IMG/VR virus record: IMGVR_UViG_3300045988_002517
DNA: 11,636 nucleotides
Direction: 5' to 3' (one strand)
Source: a virus
The position numbers were made by a program, and so were the translations under genes. Numbering within the stretch: the first letter of the stretch is position 1; every line of letters starts with the position of its first letter. Below are positions 1,552-11,636 of the stretch, one piece after another. The notes under the pieces are model-generated. The model was not told where the DNA came from. It worked only from the letters and a program-made list of their open reading frames with translations, and searched no databases.

Positions 1552-2205
1552 ATGACAAAGTTAGGTTTCAAGATTAAATTTACAAAGTCTGTATTTGGTG
1601 CAACCCAACGGGCGAAAATCAAAAAAGAGATTTTGCAAGCCGTGGAAAGCAGCCCCGAATATAGAAAGGAAATTGCGAGGGTTTTCCAAATGGCGAACCG
1701 CCGAATACAGAATATAGAGCAAAGCGGACAACTTTCGCCAGCCGTGCAAGCGTTAAACAAAGGCGATGTAAAAGGGTTTACCAAGTTTTCAATGAAAGGC
1801 GATTGGAACACCCTAAAAATTGAGTACGGCAAGGCGATTTCGTTTTTACGCCAGCCGACCAGTACGGCGCAAGGTGCAAGGCAGTACGGGCAACACCTGC
1901 AACGTATGTACGATTTAACGCCCGATGAGTACAACCTTATGGCGAGAAACCTTCAAGGCAAGTTAAACAGCGTTTCAGACAACGAATTTGTGGAACGGTA
2001 TTTGATGCGGTACAAGGATTTCACGGGCGAAATGGAGCAAAGCGCAAGCGATATAAGCACCCAAATAGAAAGCGAAGCGCAAAGCATATCACGGGCGATT
2101 GATGCAGAGATAGAAAGGCAGGCAAATGAGGTTGCGGACGCAATGGATGATATGCAAAACGATATAGAGCGCATTTTGAGCAACTTTGGCAAATTTGGCT
2201 TATGA
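1552..2205 (+). CDS. Putative terminal protein (protein primer), 217 aa
   Basis: Immediately upstream of, and translationally coupled to, the protein-primed polymerase (ATGA overlap at 2202-2205), as gene 3 is to gene 2 in phi29. It has a basic N-terminus (KIKFTK...RAKIKKE) and a strongly acidic helical C-terminus, matching the DNA-binding and DNA-mimicking priming domain logic of phi29 TP. I could not verify direct sequence similarity. Confidence 0.55.
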   Translation: MTKLGFKIKFTKSVFGATQRAKIKKEILQAVESSPEYRKEIARVFQMANRRIQNIEQSGQLSPAVQALNKGDVKGFTKFSMKGDWNTLKIEYGKAISFLRQPTSTAQGARQYGQHLQRMYDLTPDEYNLMARNLQGKLNSVSDNEFVERYLMRYKDFTGEMEQSASDISTQIESEAQSISRAIDAEIERQANEVADAMDDMQNDIERILSNFGKFGL

Positions 2206-4412
2206 AAAAAATACCTTTTGAGTTACAAGAAAGAATAAACAGCCCGACCGAAATAACAAGCATCCTGCAACGTGCCGTAAACGAAAAGAACATTATCGGA
2301 AACAGCAAAGGCGAAAGGTTTTACAACATACCGTGCGCCTTTGATATTGAAACAACAAGTTTTTACCGTGATACGGACGGACGGGCGTACACATACGAGC
2401 AAATGCAACGTATGCAGGACGGGAACGGGCGCAAGGCGAAATTAGAGAAAGCCGCAATAATGTACGTTTGGCAGTTTGGAATAAACGGATATACGATAAT
2501 GGGGCGCACGTGGGGCGAGTTTGTTACGATGATGCAGGAAATAACAAGCATCCTGCAATTATCCGACAAATTACGCCTTATTGTGTATGTGCATAACCTT
2601 TCTTACGAATTTCAGTTTTTACGCAAATGGTTTGAGTGGCAACGGGTTTTCAGTATTGATTTGCGCAAACCGATTTACGCAATAACAACGGGCAACATTG
2701 AGTTTCGGTGCAGTTACCTACTTTCGGGTTATTCGCTTGCAAAGTTGGGCGAGCAACTTATGAAATACAAGTGTGAAAAAGCCGTTGGCGATTTGGACTA
2801 TCATTTAATAAGACACCACGAAACGCCGCTGACTGATGCGGAAATACATTATTGCATAAACGATATTAAAGTAGTGATGTGCTACATACAAGAACGTATC
2901 GAGGAAAGCAAGGGGATAACGCACATACCGATAACAAAGACGGGGTTTGTGCGCAAGTATTGCCGTGCGCATTGTTTGCGTGAAAAAAGCGATGCAGGAA
3001 AGACCGTACCGAATTGGGATTATGTAAACCTGATGCAGGAACTACAAATTACGGGTATGAATGAATTTAATATGCTGCAACGTGCATTTGCAGGCGGTTT
3101 TACACACGCCAACGCCGAATATACAGACGAAATAATGTATGACGTGGATAGTTACGACTTTACAAGCAGTTACCCGTATGTAATGATAGCGGAAAAATAC
3201 CCGATGTCGCAAGGCGTTGCGATAACGGTCAAAAACATGGCGCAATTTGAGTTTTTAATATCGAAGTATTGTTGCGTGTTCGATATTGAGTTTACCAACA
3301 TATTTGCCAGCGAAACGCAAGACAACCCGATTTCCGCGAGCAAATGTTTTGTGAAAGAAAACCCGTGTGAGAATAACGGGCGCATTGTGGCGGCTTCAAA
3401 AATTGCGCTGACAATTACGGACGTGGATTTTAATATACTCAAGAACTTTTATACGTGGGAAAGTATGCGTGTGGGCGAAATGTATTGTTACAAGAAAGAC
3501 TATTTGCCGACCCCGTTTGTAAAGTCTATCCTACATTTGTACGAAAGCAAGACGAAATTAAAAGGAGTTGAGGGCAAAGAAGTGGAGTATTTGAACTCAA
3601 AGGAGATGCTAAACAGTTGCTACGGTATGAGTGTTACCAACCCTTTGCGTGATGAGTTTACCTATAACGGCGAATGGGATATTAACTCAATGACAGCCGA
3701 ACAAAAGCAGGAACTTTTATACAAGTACAACACCAGCAAGAACCGTTTTTTGTTTTACCCGTGGGGCATTTTCGTAACCGCATACGCACGGCGCAACCTT
3801 TTCACGGGCATACATGAAGCAAAAGACGATTACATTTACAGCGACACCGACAGCATTAAAATAATGAACGGCAAAGCGCATGAAGCGTATTTCAAGGCTT
3901 ATAATATGCAGGTGCAAATGAAATTGCGATCCGCCTGCAAGTACCACGGTTTGCCGTTTTCCCTTTGCGAGCCGCAAACGATAAAAGGCATAACCAAGAC
4001 TTTGGGCGTTTGGGACTTTGAAGGGACTTATACACGGTTTAAGACTTTGGGCGCAAAACGCTACATGGTGCAAGAACCTAACGCACTGAAAGCAAACGGA
4101 CGGGCATACGATTTCAGTTTAACCGTTTCGGGCGTGAACAAAAAAGCCGCCATTCCGTACCTTATTGAAAAGTACGGGGCTGACGGGATATTTGATGCGT
4201 TTACCAACTATTTGGATATACCGCCAGCGGCAACGGGCAAAAACATACATACGTACATAGACTACGAGATACAAGGCGAAATAACCGACTACAAAGGCAG
4301 CACGGCGCACTACAACGAACGCACGGGCGTACATTTAGAGCCGACCGGATACAGCCTTTCCCTTTCGGTTATGTACATAAACTATTTGCGAGGTATCAAA
4401 TTTAAGGACTAA
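2202..4412 (+). CDS. Protein-primed family B DNA polymerase (736 aa)
   Basis: Exo I is FDIETT (D48, E50). Exo II is HNLSYEF (N132, with E136 where Asp is usual). Exo III is YCIND (Y217, D221). The pre-motif is RAFAGGFT. Motif A is DFTSSYPY (D319), motif B is KEMLNSCYG (K467) and motif C is YSDTDS (D548, D550). KxY is AKRY (K619, Y621). Motif spacing leaves room for TPR1/TPR2-type insertions. Confidence 0.95.
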   Translation: MKKIPFELQERINSPTEITSILQRAVNEKNIIGNSKGERFYNIPCAFDIETTSFYRDTDGRAYTYEQMQRMQDGNGRKAKLEKAAIMYVWQFGINGYTIMGRTWGEFVTMMQEITSILQLSDKLRLIVYVHNLSYEFQFLRKWFEWQRVFSIDLRKPIYAITTGNIEFRCSYLLSGYSLAKLGEQLMKYKCEKAVGDLDYHLIRHHETPLTDAEIHYCINDIKVVMCYIQERIEESKGITHIPITKTGFVRKYCRAHCLREKSDAGKTVPNWDYVNLMQELQITGMNEFNMLQRAFAGGFTHANAEYTDEIMYDVDSYDFTSSYPYVMIAEKYPMSQGVAITVKNMAQFEFLISKYCCVFDIEFTNIFASETQDNPISASKCFVKENPCENNGRIVAASKIALTITDVDFNILKNFYTWESMRVGEMYCYKKDYLPTPFVKSILHLYESKTKLKGVEGKEVEYLNSKEMLNSCYGMSVTNPLRDEFTYNGEWDINSMTAEQKQELLYKYNTSKNRFLFYPWGIFVTAYARRNLFTGIHEAKDDYIYSDTDSIKIMNGKAHEAYFKAYNMQVQMKLRSACKYHGLPFSLCEPQTIKGITKTLGVWDFEGTYTRFKTLGAKRYMVQEPNALKANGRAYDFSLTVSGVNKKAAIPYLIEKYGADGIFDAFTNYLDIPPAATGKNIHTYIDYEIQGEITDYKGSTAHYNERTGVHLEPTGYSLSLSVMYINYLRGIKFKD
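2250..2558 (+). repeat. 21-bp perfect direct repeat inside the polymerase gene (2250-2270 and 2538-2558)
   Basis: GAAATAACAAGCATCCTGCAA occurs twice, 288 bp (96 codons) apart and in the same frame, encoding EITSILQ both times. Confidence 0.9.
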
Positions 4413-4424
4413 AATAATAAGAGT

Positions 4425-5555
4425 ATGACAACAAGAAAGACAAAGACAGACAAGCCGAAATTTTACGACTTGAAAGCGATTTTAAGCAAAAACGCCGATT
4501 ATAATGTTATATTTGGCGAACGGTCAAACGGCAAGACTTATGCAGCCTTAAAATATGGTTTGGAAAACTATATCAAGACGGGCAAGCAAATGGCATATAT
4601 CCGCCGTTGGCGTGAGGATTTGAGGGGTAAACGTGCCGAAAGCCTGTTTGCAAACCACACCGCAAACGGGCTTATTGAGGAACTGACAGAGGGCAAATTT
4701 AATGAAGTGTTCTATATGTCTAACAAGTGGTTTTTATCTTACTACGATGCAGAGAAAAACAAGCGGACACCCGACACAACCCCGTTTTGTTACGGGTTTT
4801 GCCTTTCAGAGCAGGAACACGAAAAAAGCAGCAGTTATCCGAATGTTACAACGATTGTGTTTGATGAGTTTTTGACACGGCGGTATTATTTGCCCGATGA
4901 GTTTATGTTGTTTATGAACCTTTTGAGTACGATAATACGCCAGCGCAACGATGTTAAAGTTTTCATGTTAGGCAACACCGTAAACAAGTTTTGCCCGTAC
5001 TTTACTGAAATGGGGTTAAAGCAAGTGCCGTTTATGGAGCAGGGAACAATAGATATTTACCGCTTTGGCGAACACGGCGCAATAGTGGCGGTTGAGTATT
5101 GCAGCACGATAGTACAACACAAAGCCAGCAACAAGTATTTTTGTTTCGATAACCAAAACTTGCAGATGATTACGGGAGGTAAGTGGGAACTTGCAGTATA
5201 TCCGCATTTGCCGTGCAAGTACAAGCCGCAAGATGTGTTGTTTGTGTATTATATCAAGTTTAACGATGTAGTGTTACAAGGCAACATTATACAAGTAGGC
5301 AACGAATGTTTCACGTACATACACGCCAAGACAACCCCGATAAAAGATGAGGAAAACAGCCTTATTTATTCGCTGGAAATGAACGGCAAACCGAACTACA
5401 AACGCAAGTTATTGAGTACGGCAAGTTATGTGGAGCAACAAGTGGCACGGCTTTTCGCAATAGACAAAGTTTTCTACCAAGATAATGAGGTTGGCGAAAT
5501 TGTGCGCAATTATTTAATTACGAGCGCAAAGACAAACATAGTTTCGTTGAAATGA
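4425..5555 (+). CDS. DNA encapsidation (packaging) ATPase, phi29 gp16 type (376 aa)
   Basis: Walker A is FGERSNGKT (G31-T38), the GxRxxGK[ST] form typical of gp16-like ATPases. Walker B is TIVFDEF (D147, E148). The size is similar to gp16. Confidence 0.85.
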   Translation: MTTRKTKTDKPKFYDLKAILSKNADYNVIFGERSNGKTYAALKYGLENYIKTGKQMAYIRRWREDLRGKRAESLFANHTANGLIEELTEGKFNEVFYMSNKWFLSYYDAEKNKRTPDTTPFCYGFCLSEQEHEKSSSYPNVTTIVFDEFLTRRYYLPDEFMLFMNLLSTIIRQRNDVKVFMLGNTVNKFCPYFTEMGLKQVPFMEQGTIDIYRFGEHGAIVAVEYCSTIVQHKASNKYFCFDNQNLQMITGGKWELAVYPHLPCKYKPQDVLFVYYIKFNDVVLQGNIIQVGNECFTYIHAKTTPIKDEENSLIYSLEMNGKPNYKRKLLSTASYVEQQVARLFAIDKVFYQDNEVGEIVRNYLITSAKTNIVSLK

Positions 5556-5565
5556 AAATTACGGG

Positions 5566-5602
5566 CGGTTTGGTGCAAATTTCGTGCCAAACCGACCGTT
5601 TT
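5566..5602 (+). terminator. Intergenic hairpin after the packaging ATPase (11-bp stem including two G-U pairs, 7-nt loop), short T-run
   Basis: CGGTTTGGTGC-AAATTTC-GTGCCAAACCG, then ACCGTTTT. It separates the replication/packaging block from the late block. Confidence 0.45.
5574..5589 (-). promoter_or_regulatory. Perfect sigma-54-type consensus on the minus strand inside the same palindrome
   Basis: The reverse complement of 5574-5589 is TGGCACGAAATTTGCA, which fits TGGCAC-N5-TTGC-A. It faces leftward, antisense to the ATPase gene. Confidence 0.3.
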
Positions 5603-5616
5603 ACGAAATAAATGCC

Positions 5617-5624
5617 TATCTTTG
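5617..5624 (+). promoter_or_regulatory. Bacteroidota-type -7 box (TATCTTTG) for the late operon
   Basis: Second exact copy of TATCTTTGCA, with the same AAATG-N2-3 context as at 337. It lies 26 nt upstream of ATG 5650. Confidence 0.55.
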
Positions 5625-5649
5625 CAAGTAGTAACTAAATTATAACGAT

Positions 5650-5856
5650 ATGGACGCAAATACTATTATTCAAATCATTTCAAGTTTGGGTTTTCCGATT
5701 GTGATGTGCGGCGCATTGTTTTGGTATATGGTGAAACAAAGGCAGACGCACCAAGAAGAAACGGAACACCTAAAAGATACGATTGCGGAAAATACGAAAG
5801 TGTTAGCCGAATTAACAACGCTTATTAAAGTTTTGACCGATGAGAAAGAAAGATAA
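5650..5856 (+). CDS. Small single-pass membrane protein, YvrJ-like; holin candidate (68 aa)
   Basis: One N-terminal transmembrane helix (IISSLGFPIVMCGALFWYMV) is followed by a charged coiled-coil tail. The GFP-plus-helix pattern resembles the YvrJ family as I recall it. It is the first gene of the late block. Confidence 0.5.
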   Translation: MDANTIIQIISSLGFPIVMCGALFWYMVKQRQTHQEETEHLKDTIAENTKVLAELTTLIKVLTDEKER

Positions 5857-6958
5857 CATTTACAAGTTGTACCAAGCGCAAATAAGGGACAAAGACACCG
5901 CCGTAACCGAATTTATTGCAAACACGTTGGCGAAAACTCAAAGTATGTTTGAATATGAGGGTTTGCCCGACAGCATACCGCAAAAGGAATTGGAGCGGCT
6001 TTTGCAGACAACGGGCAACGCCTTTGTTACCAGCGTGGACGGCGTTTTGTATGCGCTTTCGGGCGGCAAAGGCGGCGAACCCGATGTTTACGGACGGGCA
6101 ACGCTTTACACCGTGGCGAACCCTGCAATAAAGTTAAACAAAACCTACGATATTCAGAAAGACGGGGTTTTGATTGAGAATGACAGCAACGGCGAAAGCC
6201 TTTTGCCGCTTATTGGGCGTTATGCGGTTTTATATACTGACGGGCTTATTTCGTTGAACACCGCCAGCATTTTAACCCGTATTACGATGCTTATAAGTGC
6301 ATCCGATGACAAGACAAAACAGAGTGCCGATGAGTTTTTGCGAAAGATACAAGACGGCGAGTTTTCAATTATCGGGGAAAACGCTTTTTTCAAGGGCGTA
6401 AATATGCAGACAGCACCGACCACAAACAGCGTGTATATTACGCAACTTATTGAGTTGGTGCAATACTACAAAGCCAGTATGTACAACGAATTGGGGTTAA
6501 ACGCAAATTATAATATGAAGCGTGAACGGCTCAATTTGGGCGAGGTATCAATGAATGTGGACGTACTTTTGCCGTATGTGGATAATATGCTAAAAGAAAG
6601 ACAAAATGCAGTTGAGAAAATTAACGAAATGTTCGATACCGAAATTTCGGTTAAACTTGCTTCAAGTTGGGGTTTGGAACGGGATAATTACAACGCTTTG
6701 GCGGCTGATTTGGAAACGGCAAAGGAAAACCCCGACCCGACAGACGAACCCGACCCGACAGAGGAAACAACCGAAACAGACGGAAACGGAACGGAAACAG
6801 ACGGAAACGGAACGGAAACAGACGGGAACGATACCGAAACAGAGGAAACAGAAGAAACGAAAGAAACGGAAACGGAAACGGAAACGGACGGTAACGATAC
6901 CGAAACAGAGGAAACAGAAGAAACAGAAGAAAACGAAGAAAACAACGATAAACAATGA
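5840..6958 (+). CDS. Portal / upper collar connector protein, phi29 gp10 type, with an acidic repeat C-terminal extension (372 aa)
   Basis: By-eye alignment to phi29 gp10 gives four matches. MRKKDNIYK matches MARKRSNTYR. FEYEGLPDSIPQKELERLL matches FEWENLPPTINPSFLEKSI. GEPDVYGRATLYTVANP matches GQRDVYNQATVFRAANP. MKRERLNLGEV...AVEKINEMF matches EKKERMVTDEV...ACEKINELY. Confidence 0.9.
   Translation: MRKKDNIYKLYQAQIRDKDTAVTEFIANTLAKTQSMFEYEGLPDSIPQKELERLLQTTGNAFVTSVDGVLYALSGGKGGEPDVYGRATLYTVANPAIKLNKTYDIQKDGVLIENDSNGESLLPLIGRYAVLYTDGLISLNTASILTRITMLISASDDKTKQSADEFLRKIQDGEFSIIGENAFFKGVNMQTAPTTNSVYITQLIELVQYYKASMYNELGLNANYNMKRERLNLGEVSMNVDVLLPYVDNMLKERQNAVEKINEMFDTEISVKLASSWGLERDNYNALAADLETAKENPDPTDEPDPTEETTETDGNGTETDGNGTETDGNDTETEETEETKETETETETDGNDTETEETEETEENEENNDKQ
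6773..6924 (+). repeat. Nested in-frame tandem repeats in the portal 3' region
   Basis: The 21-bp unit GAAACAGACGGAAACGGAACG occurs twice exactly (6773-6793, 6794-6814), with a diverged third copy (6815-6835); each encodes TETDGNG or TETDGND. A 38-nt repeat GACGG(G/T)AACGATACCGAAACAGAGGAAACAGAAGAAAC lies at 6821-6858 and 6887-6924. Confidence 0.9.
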
Positions 6959-7527
6959 AATACAGCGAACTATTTACAAAGGGTAACGGGATATTTGCAA
7001 CGGTTTTCAAAACTGAATACCCGACAGAGTACGCCGCAATTTTCGGCGATACCGACCCGACCAAGTTAGACGCTTACGCCTTACTGATGTACGGCGGCAA
7101 GACCGTTGTAAACAGCATAACCAGCGACAACGCAAGTGATGTTGTTTCGGCGGTGATTGCGGTAAACGTGCAAGGCTGGGAACGTGAAGCGGCGGCGATG
7201 TTAGCCGACTACGATGTACTGACACCCGTAACGGGGCAAATTGAACGGACGGAAACGGTTACTTTGCAGGAAAGCACGGACAACACCGAAACGGGCGCAA
7301 ACAAGGCTTTCAACGACACCGACTTTTCAGACAGCGACCGAAAGACCGCCAACGATGAGAGAAACCGCACAGAAAGCCGCAAAACGACCGAAACAAGCAA
7401 AGGAACGGGCGCAAGCAAATCAATTTCGGGCGAAATTGCAAAAGAATTGCGGTTAAGGCGTGATAATTGGAGAAAAAACATTATCTTTGCACTTGTAAGC
7501 GAGATTACAACGAGTGTTTACGAATAA
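6955..7527 (+). CDS. Structural or assembly protein of unknown role (head-tail adaptor/lower-collar position, or scaffold), 190 aa
   Basis: Translationally coupled to the portal (ATGA at 6955-6958), and located between the portal and capsid genes. It has a polar, disordered-looking centre (TETVTLQESTDNTETG...RTESRKTTETSKGTG). No motif recognised. Confidence 0.35.
   Translation: MKYSELFTKGNGIFATVFKTEYPTEYAAIFGDTDPTKLDAYALLMYGGKTVVNSITSDNASDVVSAVIAVNVQGWEREAAAMLADYDVLTPVTGQIERTETVTLQESTDNTETGANKAFNDTDFSDSDRKTANDERNRTESRKTTETSKGTGASKSISGEIAKELRLRRDNWRKNIIFALVSEITTSVYE
7482..7489 (+). promoter_or_regulatory. Internal -7 box (TATCTTTG) upstream of the capsid gene, inside the 190-aa ORF
   Basis: Third exact copy of TATCTTTGCA, 60 nt upstream of ATG 7549. 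Confidence 0.45.
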
Positions 7528-7548: not shown

Positions 7549-8736
7549 ATGGAAGTAAAACAGATTTACACGCTTATTAACAGCGTATCGGGTGAAGTGT
7601 TGGGGCGTACTGACATTGTAACCGAGGATTTGACGGGCATTGTGGATTTAGGCACGGAAGTGTTTAACCAAAATGCGGTTGACAATTACGTGAAGTCACT
7701 TGTAAATCATATCGGCAAAGTGATTTTCGTAAACCGACCTTATGCGGGCAAAGTGCCGAGCGTTCTAATGGATGCGTGGGAGTTTGGCAGCGTGTTGGAA
7801 AAAATAAGTGCCGATGTTCCCGAAGCCGAGGTAAACGACACGTGGAACTTGACGGACGGACAGAGTTACGACCAAGATGTATTTCACAAACCGACCGTTA
7901 CCGCAAAGTTTTTCAACTCAAAGGTTACGTTTGAAGTGCCCGTATCAATCACGGAAAGGCAGGTCAAGGAAAGTTTCAGTAACGCCGCCCAACTTAACGG
8001 CTTTATTTCGATGATTTATACATCCGTTGAAAAGAGTATGACTATCAAGGCAGACGCTTTGATTATGCATACAATTAACAACATGATTGCGGAAACCGTG
8101 TTAGCTGATGCGCAAGTGTTTGGAGCAACGGAGGCAGGCGATATGGCAGGAGCAGACCTTGCAAGCGCAAGTACTGCAAGATGTGTGAACCTTTTGAAGT
8201 TGTACAACGATAAAACGGGCGCAAGTCTTACCGCTGCAAAGGCGATAACCGACCCCGATTTTATCCGCTTTGCGTCTTACGTAATGGGTACGTATGCCGA
8301 CCGCCTGCAAAGCATTTCGACCGTGTTCAATGTTGGCGGCAAGGAACGGTTTACGCCGAAAGATATGTTACACGTTGTACTTTTGTCCGACTTTGCAAAG
8401 GCAGCGCAAACCTATCTTTATTCCGACACGTTCAACCGTGGCGATGTGCTTTTGCCGCAAGCCGAAACCGTACCTTTTTGGCAGGGTAGCGGAAAGAACT
8501 ACGAGTTTGCCAACACGGGGCATATCAATGTTAAGGAAAGCGGCGGCAAAGCCGTTAAAATTTCGGGCGTGTTGGGCGTAATGTTCGACCGTGATGCGTT
8601 GGGCGTTTGCAATCTTGACAGACGAGTAACAACGAACTACAACGCAAAGGCAGAGTTTTTCAACAACTATTACAAGTTTGACGCTGGATATTTCAACGAC
8701 ACAAACGAAAACTTTGTAGTATTCTTTATTGAGTAA
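7549..8736 (+). CDS. Major capsid protein (395 aa)
   Basis: Large late ORF with its own promoter box, followed by the strongest terminator in the genome. The N-terminal segment NYVKSLVNHIGKVIFVNR resembles FITSLVDRIGLVVIRQ of phi29 gp8 as I recall it. Its position next to the portal module fits. Confidence 0.75.
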   Translation: MEVKQIYTLINSVSGEVLGRTDIVTEDLTGIVDLGTEVFNQNAVDNYVKSLVNHIGKVIFVNRPYAGKVPSVLMDAWEFGSVLEKISADVPEAEVNDTWNLTDGQSYDQDVFHKPTVTAKFFNSKVTFEVPVSITERQVKESFSNAAQLNGFISMIYTSVEKSMTIKADALIMHTINNMIAETVLADAQVFGATEAGDMAGADLASASTARCVNLLKLYNDKTGASLTAAKAITDPDFIRFASYVMGTYADRLQSISTVFNVGGKERFTPKDMLHVVLLSDFAKAAQTYLYSDTFNRGDVLLPQAETVPFWQGSGKNYEFANTGHINVKESGGKAVKISGVLGVMFDRDALGVCNLDRRVTTNYNAKAEFFNNYYKFDAGYFNDTNENFVVFFIE

Positions 8737-8757: not shown

Positions 8758-8765
8758 TAACTTTG
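8758..8765 (+). promoter_or_regulatory. -7 box (TAACTTTG) for the tail genes, abutting the capsid terminator
   Basis: Second exact copy of TGTTTAACTTTG (8754-8765), 51 nt upstream of ATG 8816. Confidence 0.45.
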
Positions 8766-8808
8766 GGCGGTGTGGGTGCAGGTGAAGCGCACCGCACCGC
8801 CTTTTTCT
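8766..8808 (+). terminator. Strong intrinsic terminator after the capsid gene
   Basis: GC-rich hairpin GGCGGTGTGGGTGC-AGGTGAA-GCGCACCGCACCGCC (about 14 bp with one bulge), followed directly by TTTTTCTT. Confidence 0.85.
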
Positions 8809-8815
8809 TACCGAT

Positions 8816-9268
8816 ATGACAACGATAAACTTTTATTCATACAACGGACACCCGAACACGGTAAACAAGCAGTTGGGCGAATTTACGGCGATTGAGGGCG
8901 ATTTGCGGCAAACTTTCGATGTGTTGCGCCCGACCGTAACACTACGAAAGCAGCCACGCCCGACTTTCAATTATTGTTATATACCCGATTTGGGGCGTTA
9001 TTATTTCGTGGAAAGGGTAAGTTTTGAGGGAAACAACGCCTACGAACTTACGTTGCGTGTTGACGTGCTTAAAACCTACGAAAGCGAAATTTTGGCGGCA
9101 ACGGGGCGTGTATCTGAAAGCGACAACCCCGACCCGTATATTTCAAACCGTGATACGGTTTACAAGCGCACCCCGAATTTCGAGAAAGTGCCGTTTGCAA
9201 ATACGGGCTTACTGAATGAAACGGGCGGTATTATCATGGTAACATTAAAAGGAACAACCGAAAATTAA
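8816..9268 (+). CDS. Tail-knob (phi29 gp9-type) N-terminal domain encoded as a separate 150-aa ORF
   Basis: FNYCYIPDLGRYYFVERVSFEGNNAYELTLRVDVLKTY aligns by eye with the gp9 segment [42 protein letters not shown]. The ORF ends at TAA 9266-9268. Confidence 0.65.
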   Translation: MTTINFYSYNGHPNTVNKQLGEFTAIEGDLRQTFDVLRPTVTLRKQPRPTFNYCYIPDLGRYYFVERVSFEGNNAYELTLRVDVLKTYESEILAATGRVSESDNPDPYISNRDTVYKRTPNFEKVPFANTGLLNETGGIIMVTLKGTTEN

Positions 9269-9274
9269 AAGAGT

Positions 9275-10858
9275 ATGGCAGTAATTGTAAATATACCCAA
9301 TGCACACGATGATAACAGCCAATGGAACGAAAGCGGCGGTTATTGGGATATAAACGTAAGAACCGATGACGGGTTTGTATTTCAAGGCGATGTTAAGGCG
9401 GTTTATACCAATACAAGCGGCTACCCGAAAAGCGTTGTTTTGGAGCAAAACGGCGCAAAGGTTTGGGCATTTGGTAAGTTGTCCCAAACCAATGCAAAGA
9501 CGAAAATAACTATCACGGGCGAAACAGCCAGCGAGGGAAACCCCGAACTTAACGTTACGAACAACGTACCCAACACGACAGCCACGGGCGAAAAGTTGGG
9601 CAAGACTTCGGCGAGGGTAACACTAACAGCCGATGAGGGTTTTAAGATAACCAGCGCACAAGTAGGATTTAGCAACGGTTACGGCTACCCTGCAAGCGAG
9701 AATATGACAATAAACGAGGGCGGCAAATCTGCAAGTTGGCAAAACGATGATTGCGAACCCGACAAAGGTGTAACGATAAACGGCGAAACGGGCAAATTTA
9801 CAGAAGGGGTAAGCATTGAACCCAACCTTTCAAATTGTCATGCCGACCCACCGTTACCCGAATTTTTGCAATACGGTGAAACGCTTAACGTAACTATCAA
9901 AGCGAATGAAAACACGGCGTTTGACACGGAACAAAGTACGCCTAATTTTTTCTATTACAACGAAACGGGATACCCTACCAAACAAGATTTAACCGTTTCG
10001 GGCGACAAAAAAACGGCAACGGGAAGCATTGTTTTACAAGACGGTTGGCATAACTTTTCTGTAAATGCGCAAGCGTACCCCGTGGCGGTTGTAGGCGAGC
10101 AGTACGGGGCTATAAACGTGTATTTGGTAACACTTGATGAGTTGGCAGAATTTAGCGGCAAACGGTTTTTCAAGGAAACGGGCAGCGACCCCGAAACGGG
10201 CGCAACGCAATACGAAAACATAGATTTGGGCACATACGTGAACAAAATACGCCGTGTTTACACCAACATAGGTGCAAGCAGCACCGATGTAATACGATGC
10301 GGCAACTACAACACGGGTGTATCTTGCCACCAGCCAGCGCAAGACAAAATAACGCTTGACTTTGGCACGGCGGTAGTACCAGCGCACAATGAGGACAACA
10401 CCGACTACGAAAGCGAAATACAAATCTTTTTGCCGTTTGCAGGCTTTGTAAACCTCAATGCCGATTATGCAGGCAAAACGATAGCTTTGCAGTACGTTAT
10501 AAACGTGGTAACGGGCAACGGGGTTGCGCTTTTGTCCTGCAACGGCGTTGTGTTCCAGGTTGAGGAAACAGAACCGAGCAGCGAAATAATATACCTTTCG
10601 CCAAGCACCCAAGTTAAAACCGTGGGCGGCGATGATTGGAACGAAATGTTATATTACGGGTTAGAACCTTACATTTATTGCAAGTGGTACGAGAGCGCAA
10701 GCAACGGGCGAAACAATGACAGACAAACGGGCATTTTAGGCGATTTCAGAGGGTTTAATGTGTTCGATGATGTTACACCCATACACACCGCCGAAATGCT
10801 GACAGAGGAACAAGAAATGATATACACGGCTTTGTCTGACGGCGTTTATATTGAGTAA
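9275..10858 (+). CDS. Tail protein: three-repeat putative receptor-binding region fused to the gp9-type tail-knob C-terminal region (527 aa)
   Basis: The C-terminal half matches gp9 in two places. [26 protein letters not shown] matches [33 protein letters not shown]...[17 protein letters not shown] matches AFNYVQTKD...NNDLQEIRTIFDNGITL. The N-terminal half has three GYP-centred repeats. It is in the same reading frame as 8816..9268. Confidence 0.7.
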   Translation: [527 protein letters not shown]

Positions 10859-10872
10859 CTGCAAGGCAGGAC

Positions 10873-10913
10873 AAAAAGAAAGGCGGCAACTTGATTGTTA
10901 CCGCCTTTTCTTT
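10873..10913. terminator. Bidirectional intrinsic terminator between the convergent tail gene and the leftward gene
   Basis: Hairpin GGCGGCAAC-TTGATT-GTTACCGCC (one mismatch), flanked by AAAAAGAAA on the left and TTTTCTTT on the right. It therefore reads as stem plus U-tract on both strands. Confidence 0.75.
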
Positions 10914-10930: not shown

Positions 10931-11302
10931 TCACGTGCTTTGCAAGAATGTCAGCACCCGTTTTTCGTTGTATGTGCTTACGGGATAACACGAACAAAAG
11001 GTTTTGAAACGATTTAACAGCCTTTCAGTTAGTATAAAGTCGTATGCTTGATTTTTGCAAGCCTTTTCTAACTCAAATTTGCCGTTTAACTTTTCAACGA
11101 TTGCGGCGTTATCACGATTGAAATATATTTGATTTTCCAACACGCTAACAACCGTTTCCAATGTTTCGGCAAGGCTTTGTAAGTTGGTACGAATTTCGGG
11201 CGCATTTGCCGCCAAAAACTCAACGTGTTTTTTGCTTGTAAGCAAAGTTTCTTGTAACTGATTTAATACTTTCGCATTTAATGCAAATCTTTCGTTTGTC
11301 AT
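10931..11302 (-). CDS. Hypothetical all-helical 123-aa protein; the only leftward gene (right-end early gene candidate)
   Basis: Intact ORF with its own terminator and upstream region reaching into ITR-R. It has no transmembrane segment and no recognised motif. Confidence 0.7.
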   Translation of the reverse strand: MTNERFALNAKVLNQLQETLLTSKKHVEFLAANAPEIRTNLQSLAETLETVVSVLENQIYFNRDNAAIVEKLNGKFELEKACKNQAYDFILTERLLNRFKTFCSCYPVSTYNEKRVLTFLQST

Positions 11303-11407: not shown

Positions 11408-11414
11408 TTTAACA

Positions 11415-11439
11415 GTGTTCCACGTGAAACAATTTCACG
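11415..11439. promoter_or_regulatory. Mirror copy of the palindromic operator-like element in ITR-R
   Basis: GTGTTCCACGTGAAACAATTTCACG is the reverse complement of 198-222. It lies upstream of the leftward gene 11302..10931. Confidence 0.55.
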
Positions 11440-11452
11440 GGCGCACACGCAT

Positions 11453-11574
11453 AACAAAAACCGTGCCAAAGTCTGTTATCTTTTGTTAAATCTGTGCCTT
11501 AGCAAAAACCGTGCCAAAGTGGGTTGCGAAATGTTAAAAAACGGTAAAGTGGCGACCCAGCAAAAACCGTGCCA
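11453..11574 (-). promoter_or_regulatory. Mirror array of the three sigma-54-like motifs in ITR-R, facing leftward into the genome
   Basis: Reverse complements of 11559-11574, 11501-11516 and 11453-11468 give TGGCACGGTTTTTGCT twice and TGGCACGGTTTTTGTT once. Confidence 0.4.
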
Positions 11575-11636
11575 CAAAATGTTTGCAAATGTTAAAAATG
11601 CGTTGGGAAACGTTAAAAAAGGGTCAGTAGCGTACC

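Follow-up and report, generated by a model that had tools for sequence, protein, structure and literature searches.

Introduction

The tail knob protein gp9 of phi29 is one chain of 599 amino acids (aa), and gp12 of C1 (574 aa), gp12 of Andhra (588 aa) and gp9 of GA-1 (612 aa) are single chains as well. A knob composed of two proteins was described for Acinetobacter phage Phanie (Pourcel et al. 2024, J Virol 98:e00667-24, as cited in PMC11476376) and was extended to Gram-negative phi29-like phages and to the human-gut metagenome-assembled genome (MAG) 2692_55609 (Evseev et al. 2024; PMC11476376). In this study, we analysed the knob locus of the IMG/VR virus record IMGVR_UViG_3300045988_002517, a stretch of 11,636 nucleotides (nt) that is referred to here as the window. 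Two adjacent open reading frames (ORFs) of 150 and 527 aa lie there in one reading frame behind the capsid gene. A preliminary description of this DNA had presented them as a tail-knob gene split by a single in-frame TAA and had offered a genuinely two-piece knob, programmed read-through and a nonsense mutation or sequencing error as explanations. We found that the two ORFs very probably encode separately translated subunits that jointly do the job of a gp9-type tail knob, and that their shared frame is coincidental.

The two-piece knob itself is thus already known from the 2024 literature. The described pairs are ORF009/ORF010 of Salmonella phage Astrid, gp9/gp10 of Phanie and the pair of Pectobacterium phage DU_PP_III (PMC11476376). 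It was proposed that the split arose together with an immunoglobulin (Ig)-like insertion in the ancestor of the group (PMC11476376). The fold of the N-domain is the common tube/stopper fold, and for Phanie, Astrid, DU_PP_III and the gut MAG an equivalence of the C-domain of the large protein to the C-part of gp9 was reported on the basis of HHpred and AlphaFold (PMC11476376). In AlphaFold 3 models of relatives of the window, six small and six large subunits form the knob, a hetero-oligomer with beta-sheets between subunits (PMC11476376). According to the account of Pourcel et al. 2024 that is given in PMC11476376, virions of Phanie are infectious only once they have attached to the myophage Aci01-1's contractile tail.

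The window matches the two-piece knob of these Astrithrvirus-like phages in the small protein that follows the major capsid protein (MCP), in a large protein with Ig-like and C-terminal domains, in the separate starts at a tight junction and in the layout of the genome. Like the window, their genomes have 11-12 kb and carry genes for ATPase, a small ORF, connector, a protein of ~190 aa, MCP, a protein of ~147 aa and a large protein in this order; the small proteins are homologous, as are the C-terminal domains of the large ones, with Ig-like domains between them. However, the N protein of the Astrithrvirus-like phages is just 26-34% identical to that of the window, which represents a separate metagenomic clade. 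The junction differs too, being TAA plus 6 nt in the same frame in the window and a TAATG overlap or a 1-nt gap in the Astrithrvirus-like phages, as do the middle domains: three Ig-like domains are present in the window, whereas the large protein of Phanie has 854 aa and a GenBank annotation as lyase. Unlike the described Astrithrvirus-like phages, the window genome has no recognisable endolysin gene and its clade contains re-fused alleles. With phi29 gp9 the window shares the fold and the signature motif of the N-domain and the late-operon place beside the MCP, and the split lies at a Pfam boundary of gp9; however, gp9 is one chain without an Ig-like insert.

The two ORFs and their junction

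The smaller ORF starts with ATG, encodes 150 aa and stops at TAA (9266-9268). It is followed by AAG AGT and by the ATG at 9275, which opens the 527-aa ORF. Both ORFs are in frame 2 and 6 nt apart, and a product made through the stop codon would have 680 aa; all of this agrees with the preliminary description. The RNA around the junction is less structured than its shuffled versions (z = +1.13), and no RNA structure that could stimulate recoding was found at the junction. Among close relatives the spacer reads AAGAGT, AAGGAT, AAGTAT, AAGACT, AAAAGT, ATGAGT, AGAGT (5 nt) or AAT (3 nt), so its "codons" differ non-conservatively (AGT/GAT/TAT/ACT for S/D/Y/T), whereas the downstream start, ATG and then GCN or AGY, is kept family-wide. 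A Shine-Dalgarno-like motif was found upstream of none of the ten plus-strand genes of the window, the leaders of which are A/T-rich. Because the junctions are tight and such motifs are absent, positions 9266-9274 are probably a site of termination-reinitiation (translational coupling) and not a recoding site.

The small protein

The profile of the 150-aa family matched C1 gp12 (4eo2_A, E = 0.0066) over residues 49-127 and Andhra gp12 (8egs_Y, E = 0.14) over residues 68-119 in the PDB. These matches span the RYYF...DVLKTY motif, and the sequence GRYYFVERV...LRVDVLKTY, in which the preliminary description had seen the N-domain motif of gp9, indeed aligns with both proteins. C1 gp12 (PDB 4EO2) and Andhra gp12 (8EGS), each a "major tail protein", are the best profile matches of the family; however, they are single chains of 574-588 aa from phages of Gram-positive hosts, and nothing aligns past about residue 130. 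With phmmer, neither ORF matched the PDB. The 150-aa protein of the window matched phrog_16615 weakly (E 0.033), a family whose N-terminal region is matched by gp9, and residues 89-121 of phi29 gp9 were aligned by relatives of the 150-aa protein, not by the window protein itself. PF16838 (Caud_tail_N) was detected in 5 of the 149 family members (best 1.5e-5) and was the sole Pfam family found in more than two of them. A protein in NCBI that is 87% identical to the 150-aa protein bears the name "major tail protein". In the control, phi29 gp9 consisted of PF16838 (7-122) and PF20934 (phi29_gp9_C, 151-597). The Pfam boundary of gp9 lies at residues 122-151, and therefore the break between the window ORFs falls at gp9's own domain boundary.

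The two window proteins were predicted separately as monomers with AlphaFold2 (AF2). The model of the 150-aa protein, built on 149 sequences, had a mean predicted local distance difference test score (pLDDT) of 83 and showed a confident beta-sandwich (residues 1-100, pLDDT >90) with a low-confidence extended tail (residues 100-150). Foldseek matched this model in the PDB to phi29 gp9 (5fb4/5fb5, probability 1.0), 4eo2 (0.97) and 8egs (0.82), and its best matches in BFVD were the N-termini of uncultured podovirus proteins of 448-666 aa (E 1e-7 to 1e-6, root-mean-square deviation 1.7-2.0 A). The 150-aa protein is homologous to the N-terminal domain of phi29 gp9 and C1 gp12.

The large protein

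Residues 1-270 of the 527-aa protein were modelled with a pLDDT of about 90 as three tandem Ig-like domains. The Foldseek matches of this model were tandem Ig or fibronectin type III (FN3) repeat proteins and reflect the Ig-like domains only. The Ig-like module, which varies in copy number, presumably has a lateral position and binds the cell surface. For the C-terminal part, a hidden Markov model (HMM) of ~290 aa was built from the metagenomic clade. With nearly full-length alignments, it matched the large proteins encoded behind the capsid gene in DU_PP_III (1.2e-17), Entb_47 (3.5e-16), Astrid (9.7e-12) and Vibrio K58 g2 (2.6e-6); the large protein of Phanie was not detected by it. It follows that the large knob proteins of cultured Astrithrvirus-like phages contain a homologue of this C-terminal domain.

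Residues 271-527 are presumed to correspond to gp9's C-terminal domain. We take this presumed equivalence from the HHpred and AlphaFold results on relatives (PMC11476376), from the gene position and from the one-chain relatives. Searches of the PDB with profile A2 of the C protein returned nothing. Profile A7 gave a marginal match to 4ei0_A (E = 0.022), an uncharacterized hypothetical protein; this match falls in the variable region and was rejected as not relevant. When fused relatives were compared with the four knob proteins by phmmer, the N-domain alone aligned.

Conservation of the two-gene state and of the frame

An artificial 680-aa fusion was searched against 5.8 billion proteins and gave 1,622 matches. 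The best 120 of these all have 524-620 aa and the same Met start (MAVIV... in nearly all), the top ones being proteins of 525-527 aa, and among these 120 no protein covers more than 81% of the 680-aa query. The common Met start holds for more than 120 clusters of the 524-620-aa protein. The small protein stands alone at 143-174 aa, a few truncated fragments aside, down to 44% identity. An exhaustive search with the N-profile returned 7,949 representative clusters, and nearly all of the best 150 have 140-165 aa. The junction is identical in dozens of independent assemblies from several sources. A stand-alone protein of ~147 aa is also present in the cultured, plaque-forming phages DU_PP_III, Entb_47, Astrid, K58 g2 and Phanie (tblastn of the 150-aa ORF, 6e-11, 9e-11, 2e-10, 3e-8 and 9e-7, respectively). 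In each of them the match is the gene right after that of the MCP, annotated in Phanie as "putative tail knob protein", and the gene order is identical. The genuinely two-piece knob that had been among the first suggestions is thus found in thousands of relatives, cultured infectious phages included. The split is old and normal, and very probably ancestral to a very large group of phi29-like phages of ~11-12 kb, to which the cultured Astrithrvirus-like phages of Gram-negative bacteria belong.

The frame relation was compared in 80 close relatives, i.e., IMG/VR loci with an N protein 95-100% identical to that of the window. TAA plus 6 nt in the same frame was found in 66 of the 80 (67 with the window itself), and L012, L018 and L037 also show TAA, 6 nt and ATG in the same frame, with the downstream ORF not delimited. 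The same frame is kept in L066 (3-nt spacer) and in L054 (TAA abutting ATG). In contrast, L051 and L076 with a 5-nt spacer and L057 and L080 with a 14-nt overlap and a TGA stop are in a different frame, and in these four the downstream ORF is still full-length although the frame is broken. The remaining 5 carry one fused ORF of 610-621 aa. Outside this clade, the distance is -8 nt in L081, -4 nt in L083 and L086, -1 nt (TAATG) in Astrid, Phanie and DU_PP_III and +1 nt in Entb_47 and K58 g2, all in a different frame, whereas L087 (+3 nt) and L085 (+9 nt) are in the same frame. Across the split loci with a downstream ORF, junctions range from -14 to +9 nt and all three frame relations are used. 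Counting Astrid, Phanie and DU_PP_III as separate lineages, the same frame occurs in 3 of 11 lineages (the window clade, L085 and L087) and another frame in 8 of 11. Same-frame adjacency is no more than chance, as the preliminary description had also allowed. The same-frame majority within the window clade is due to shared ancestry (95-100% identity) and is not independent evidence. In this clade every junction of the window type has a TAA stop, and TGA is found only in the two -14-nt variants; a sense codon in place of the TAA was seen in no relative examined. The picture of one gene interrupted by a stop codon is therefore not supported, since the downstream ORF has its own conserved ATG-GCN and the frame varies even within the clade.

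Fused alleles and module variation

Within the window's own clade, a single knob protein of 610-668 aa was found in fourteen 90%-identity clusters from several data sources. These fused proteins are P0241, P0460, P0476, P0480, P0481, P0483, P0485, P0490, P0491, P0496 and P0504-P0508. The protein P0217 was not placed on any contig. Compared with the split alleles of the L057 type, fused alleles lack the stop/start junction together with roughly 165 codons from the start of the large gene, and the N protein, with its tail ...KGNDNDT, runs on in frame into an inter-domain linker. To judge from these alignments, the fused alleles are apparently in-frame deletions of several hundred bases, by which the two genes were naturally re-fused. 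A 10-nt duplication was considered as the origin of the L057-type junction and was rejected, since the alignments show instead the loss of the junction and of ~165 codons in the fused alleles. That re-fused single-ORF alleles coexist with split alleles in one clade is the new point, and a modest one.

Compact fused proteins occur in more distant relatives, namely P0307 (387 aa), P0331 (523 aa) and L093 (471 aa). By sequence inspection only, a hydrophobic insert rich in Gly and Ala (...GLVQTAVGAIAGGIESFFGGGDIANGIASGA...) is present in L093 and P0331 where gp9 has a membrane-active loop; the two-piece knobs lack it, and the window protein has a gap there in alignment A7 and thus no counterpart of the loop. 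In gp9, residues ~417-491 reportedly form this long Gly/Ala-rich hydrophobic membrane-active loop. Two further proteins have an unusual arrangement: in P0245 (325 aa) an unrelated hydrophobic sequence comes after the N-domain, perhaps because the contig is chimeric, and in P0382 (468 aa) the N-domain lies at residues 318-430, behind a different N-terminal region.

The large protein varies by whole Ig-like modules and has 386-854 aa among the relatives. The copy number of the ~90-aa module differs between the window (527 aa) and relatives of 614-620, 713-725 and 772-804 aa. An altered module number was seen in P0009, P0067, P0087, P0389 and L087, perfect tandem duplications of the module included. 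The gene boundary looks like a module boundary, in a fast-evolving region that probably recognises a host or a partner.

Discussion

Very probably, the 150-aa and the 527-aa protein are two subunits of one gp9-type knob. The two halves belong together because one-chain relatives exist. The small protein would supply the proximal N-terminal tube-fold ring, as the N-domain ring of gp9 does, and the large protein would supply the lateral Ig-like domains and the distal C-terminal knob tube. The C gene has a conserved ATG of its own as start, and its translation is most likely coupled to termination of the N gene; this coupling would lead to roughly equimolar subunits for a 6+6 assembly. The tail of the N protein (residues 100-150) and the C-domain, both of low confidence in the models, would fit folding upon assembly. 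The shared frame in the window is a lineage-specific accident.

Several results weigh against this assignment. On its own, the 150-aa protein of the window had no match at Pfam, PHROG or PDB thresholds. The Foldseek E-values of its model in the PDB are modest (~0.02), and neck/stopper proteins of siphophages with the same tube fold rank equally in Foldseek. In the AF2 monomer of the large protein, residues 271-527 have a pLDDT of 30-60 and are unreliable. When this C-terminal domain was compared with the C-domain of gp9 (PF20934), no sequence match in PDB, Pfam or PHROG was obtained, and hhalign against phi29 gp9 or the four-member knob alignment aligned the last 30-40 residues only (E 0.15-0.22, not significant). 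In these aligned ends the C-terminus of the window's large protein is colinear with ...DLQEIRTIFDNGITLW, with the motif "...E..I...L..GV...". For the gp9-like C-terminal motifs that had been placed in the second ORF, this colinear end is weak support. Translational coupling and the stoichiometry are inferred from gene geometry only.

It might be speculated that, like Phanie, the very abundant window clade is a satellite-type podophage clade whose two-piece, Ig-decorated knob may dock, by analogy, on the tail of a helper phage, or, in a weaker form, that low-level read-through of the TAA yields a few fused subunits; we consider this unlikely. If the clade was of the satellite type, the break after the N-domain would be a module boundary for swapping, duplicating, deleting and re-fusing the distal part that is specific to a partner or receptor, and this would explain why split and fused alleles coexist. 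The absence of an endolysin is compatible with dependence on another phage, without showing it.

Quite unlikely is that the 150-aa protein forms an independent neck- or stopper-like ring beside a separate distal tail protein. Foldseek ranks the neck proteins of lambda and SaPI1 and many "head-tail adaptor / closure knob" proteins beside gp9, and the fold is the common tube/stopper fold (PMC11476376). However, the matches at the sequence level are N-domains of tail knobs, not adaptors, the best BFVD matches are the N-termini of long podovirus knob-like proteins, and fused relatives carry the N-domain on the same chain as the C-domain. In addition, the N-domains of gp9 themselves assemble into a ring of this kind, which makes the distinction largely a semantic one.

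Programmed read-through at TAA 9266 was raised in the preliminary description; that a minor 680-aa fusion is made beside the 150-aa protein, with both being needed, is very improbable. The preliminary description had itself named relatives with two separate genes consistently in different frames as a ground for refutation, and for read-through such relatives were found. The ORFs share a frame at a distance of 6 nt, this geometry is kept in most of the close relatives (66/80), and covalent fusions are evidently tolerated in nature. However, the stop codon is TAA and lies where no stimulatory structure was found (z = +1.13). Both release factors recognise TAA, the least leaky of the stop codons. 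Relatives with the 5-nt spacer or the -14-nt overlap break the frame and keep a full-length downstream ORF. Among the other lineages 8 of 10 use another frame, all five cultured phages included, and the spacer codons vary non-conservatively while the downstream ATG-GCN is conserved. The likeness to read-through of the Qbeta A1 type, a short ORF followed by a longer in-frame ORF, is a superficial one of geometry only. Programmed read-through goes with a frame kept among relatives and often with a stimulatory structure 3' of the stop. Qbeta A1-type read-through uses a leaky stop (UGA) and has no independent downstream start, whereas the window has a TAA stop, a conserved downstream ATG and a frame that varies among relatives.

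That the TAA is a recent nonsense mutation or a sequencing or assembly error, which would make this a defective or suppressor-dependent phage, is suggested by the same-frame adjacency and by the single proteins of ~570-610 aa that are the gp9 homologues of Gram-positive phages, yet it is extremely improbable given the identical junction in dozens of assemblies, the stand-alone N protein below 45% identity and in cultured phages, the lack of any relative with a sense codon at the TAA, and the common Met start and lack of >81% coverage among the best 120 of the 1,622 matches to the 680-aa fusion.

Reading the two ORFs as subunits of one knob, we suggest that the pair is labelled tail knob protein N-part and C-part, and not annotated as a pseudogene, frameshift or recoding site. 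A large uncultured clade is thereby added to the phi29-like phages with a "split tail knob". Within one clade that is at least 95% identical, split alleles in three frame relations, alleles with differing Ig-like counts and re-fused single-chain alleles were found, which suggests that modules are exchanged at a hot spot in the tail part that likely serves in host recognition or as an adaptor. The re-fused alleles are natural "fusion controls" for asking why the knob is split.

Genome context and other features

The window is a complete linear phage genome with 43.7% G+C and exact 224-bp terminal inverted repeats at 1-224 and 11413-11636, and it presumably replicates by a protein-primed mechanism. 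By gene content it is phi29-like, with PolB, gp16 ATPase, gp10 connector and Phi29_MCP all encoded upstream of the knob ORFs (Table 1). No deposited phage was matched when the whole window was searched by megablast.

Table 1. Positions of the knob genes and other features in the window, and of fused knob ORFs in relatives.
Feature	Position	Strand	Remarks
Knob protein N, 150 aa	8816..9268	+	Profile, Foldseek and BFVD matches to gp9-type N-domains
Junction, TAA and A-rich 6-nt spacer AAGAGT	9266..9274	+	Abuts ATG of the C gene
Knob protein C, residues 1-270	9275..10084	+	Three tandem Ig-like beta-sandwich domains (AF2, Foldseek)
Knob protein C, residues 271-527	10085..10858	+	Conserved C-terminal knob domain; HMM matches in cultured phages
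Hairpin followed by UUUUUCUU	8765..8810	+	Between the capsid gene (stop 8736) and the knob genes
Protein-primed type-B DNA polymerase	2202-4412		
gp16-type packaging ATPase	4425-5555		
Holin-like ORF, 68 aa	5650-5856		phrog_4898, E = 1.2e-10
gp10-type connector	5840-6958		
ORF between connector and capsid genes, 190 aa	6955-7527		Without family match; position kept in all relatives (189-190 aa)
Phi29_MCP major capsid protein	7549-8736		
G+C-rich 12-bp hairpin with T/A runs at its flanks	10879-10908		Between the knob gene and the convergent ORF 10931-11302
Right-end ORF, 123 aa	10931-11302	-	Without matches
Fused knob ORF, IMG/VR contigs L058, L062, L065, L073 and L074	about 4001-5840		610-621 aa; N part 95-97% identical to the window
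Fused knob ORF, L093 (MT836263, human faeces)	3423-4838		471 aa

The hairpin ahead of the knob genes has a free energy of -28.3 kcal/mol (z = -4.4), and none of 200 shuffles was equally stable. It looks like an intrinsic terminator or attenuator; its stem is imperfect, and a scan for the terminator consensus did not flag it. Such a function, inferred from the structure, would fit lower expression of a 6-copy tail protein than of the capsid protein. In many relatives, versions of the small protein with 161-174 aa (MQVKAHRTAFF...) begin within this hairpin; these gene calls are probably over-extended. The hairpin behind the knob genes is probably a bidirectional terminator.

The absence of Shine-Dalgarno motifs is typical of Bacteroidota-type initiation and is compatible with a Bacteroidota-type host. 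The ATPase gene, for example, is preceded by ...aataagagtATG and the large knob gene by ...ttaaaagagtATG. The more distant relatives L081 and L086 carry a Peptidase_M15_3 gene at the place of the right-end ORF; Astrid and Phanie have CHAP and amidase genes. The C-terminus of the connector is a long acidic low-complexity repeat TETDGNGTETDGNGTETDGNDTETEETEETKETETETETDGNDTETEETEETEENEENNDKQ (6750-6955), the DNA of which also gives spurious long ORFs in other frames (6606-6986 on the plus strand and 6651-7064 on the minus strand).

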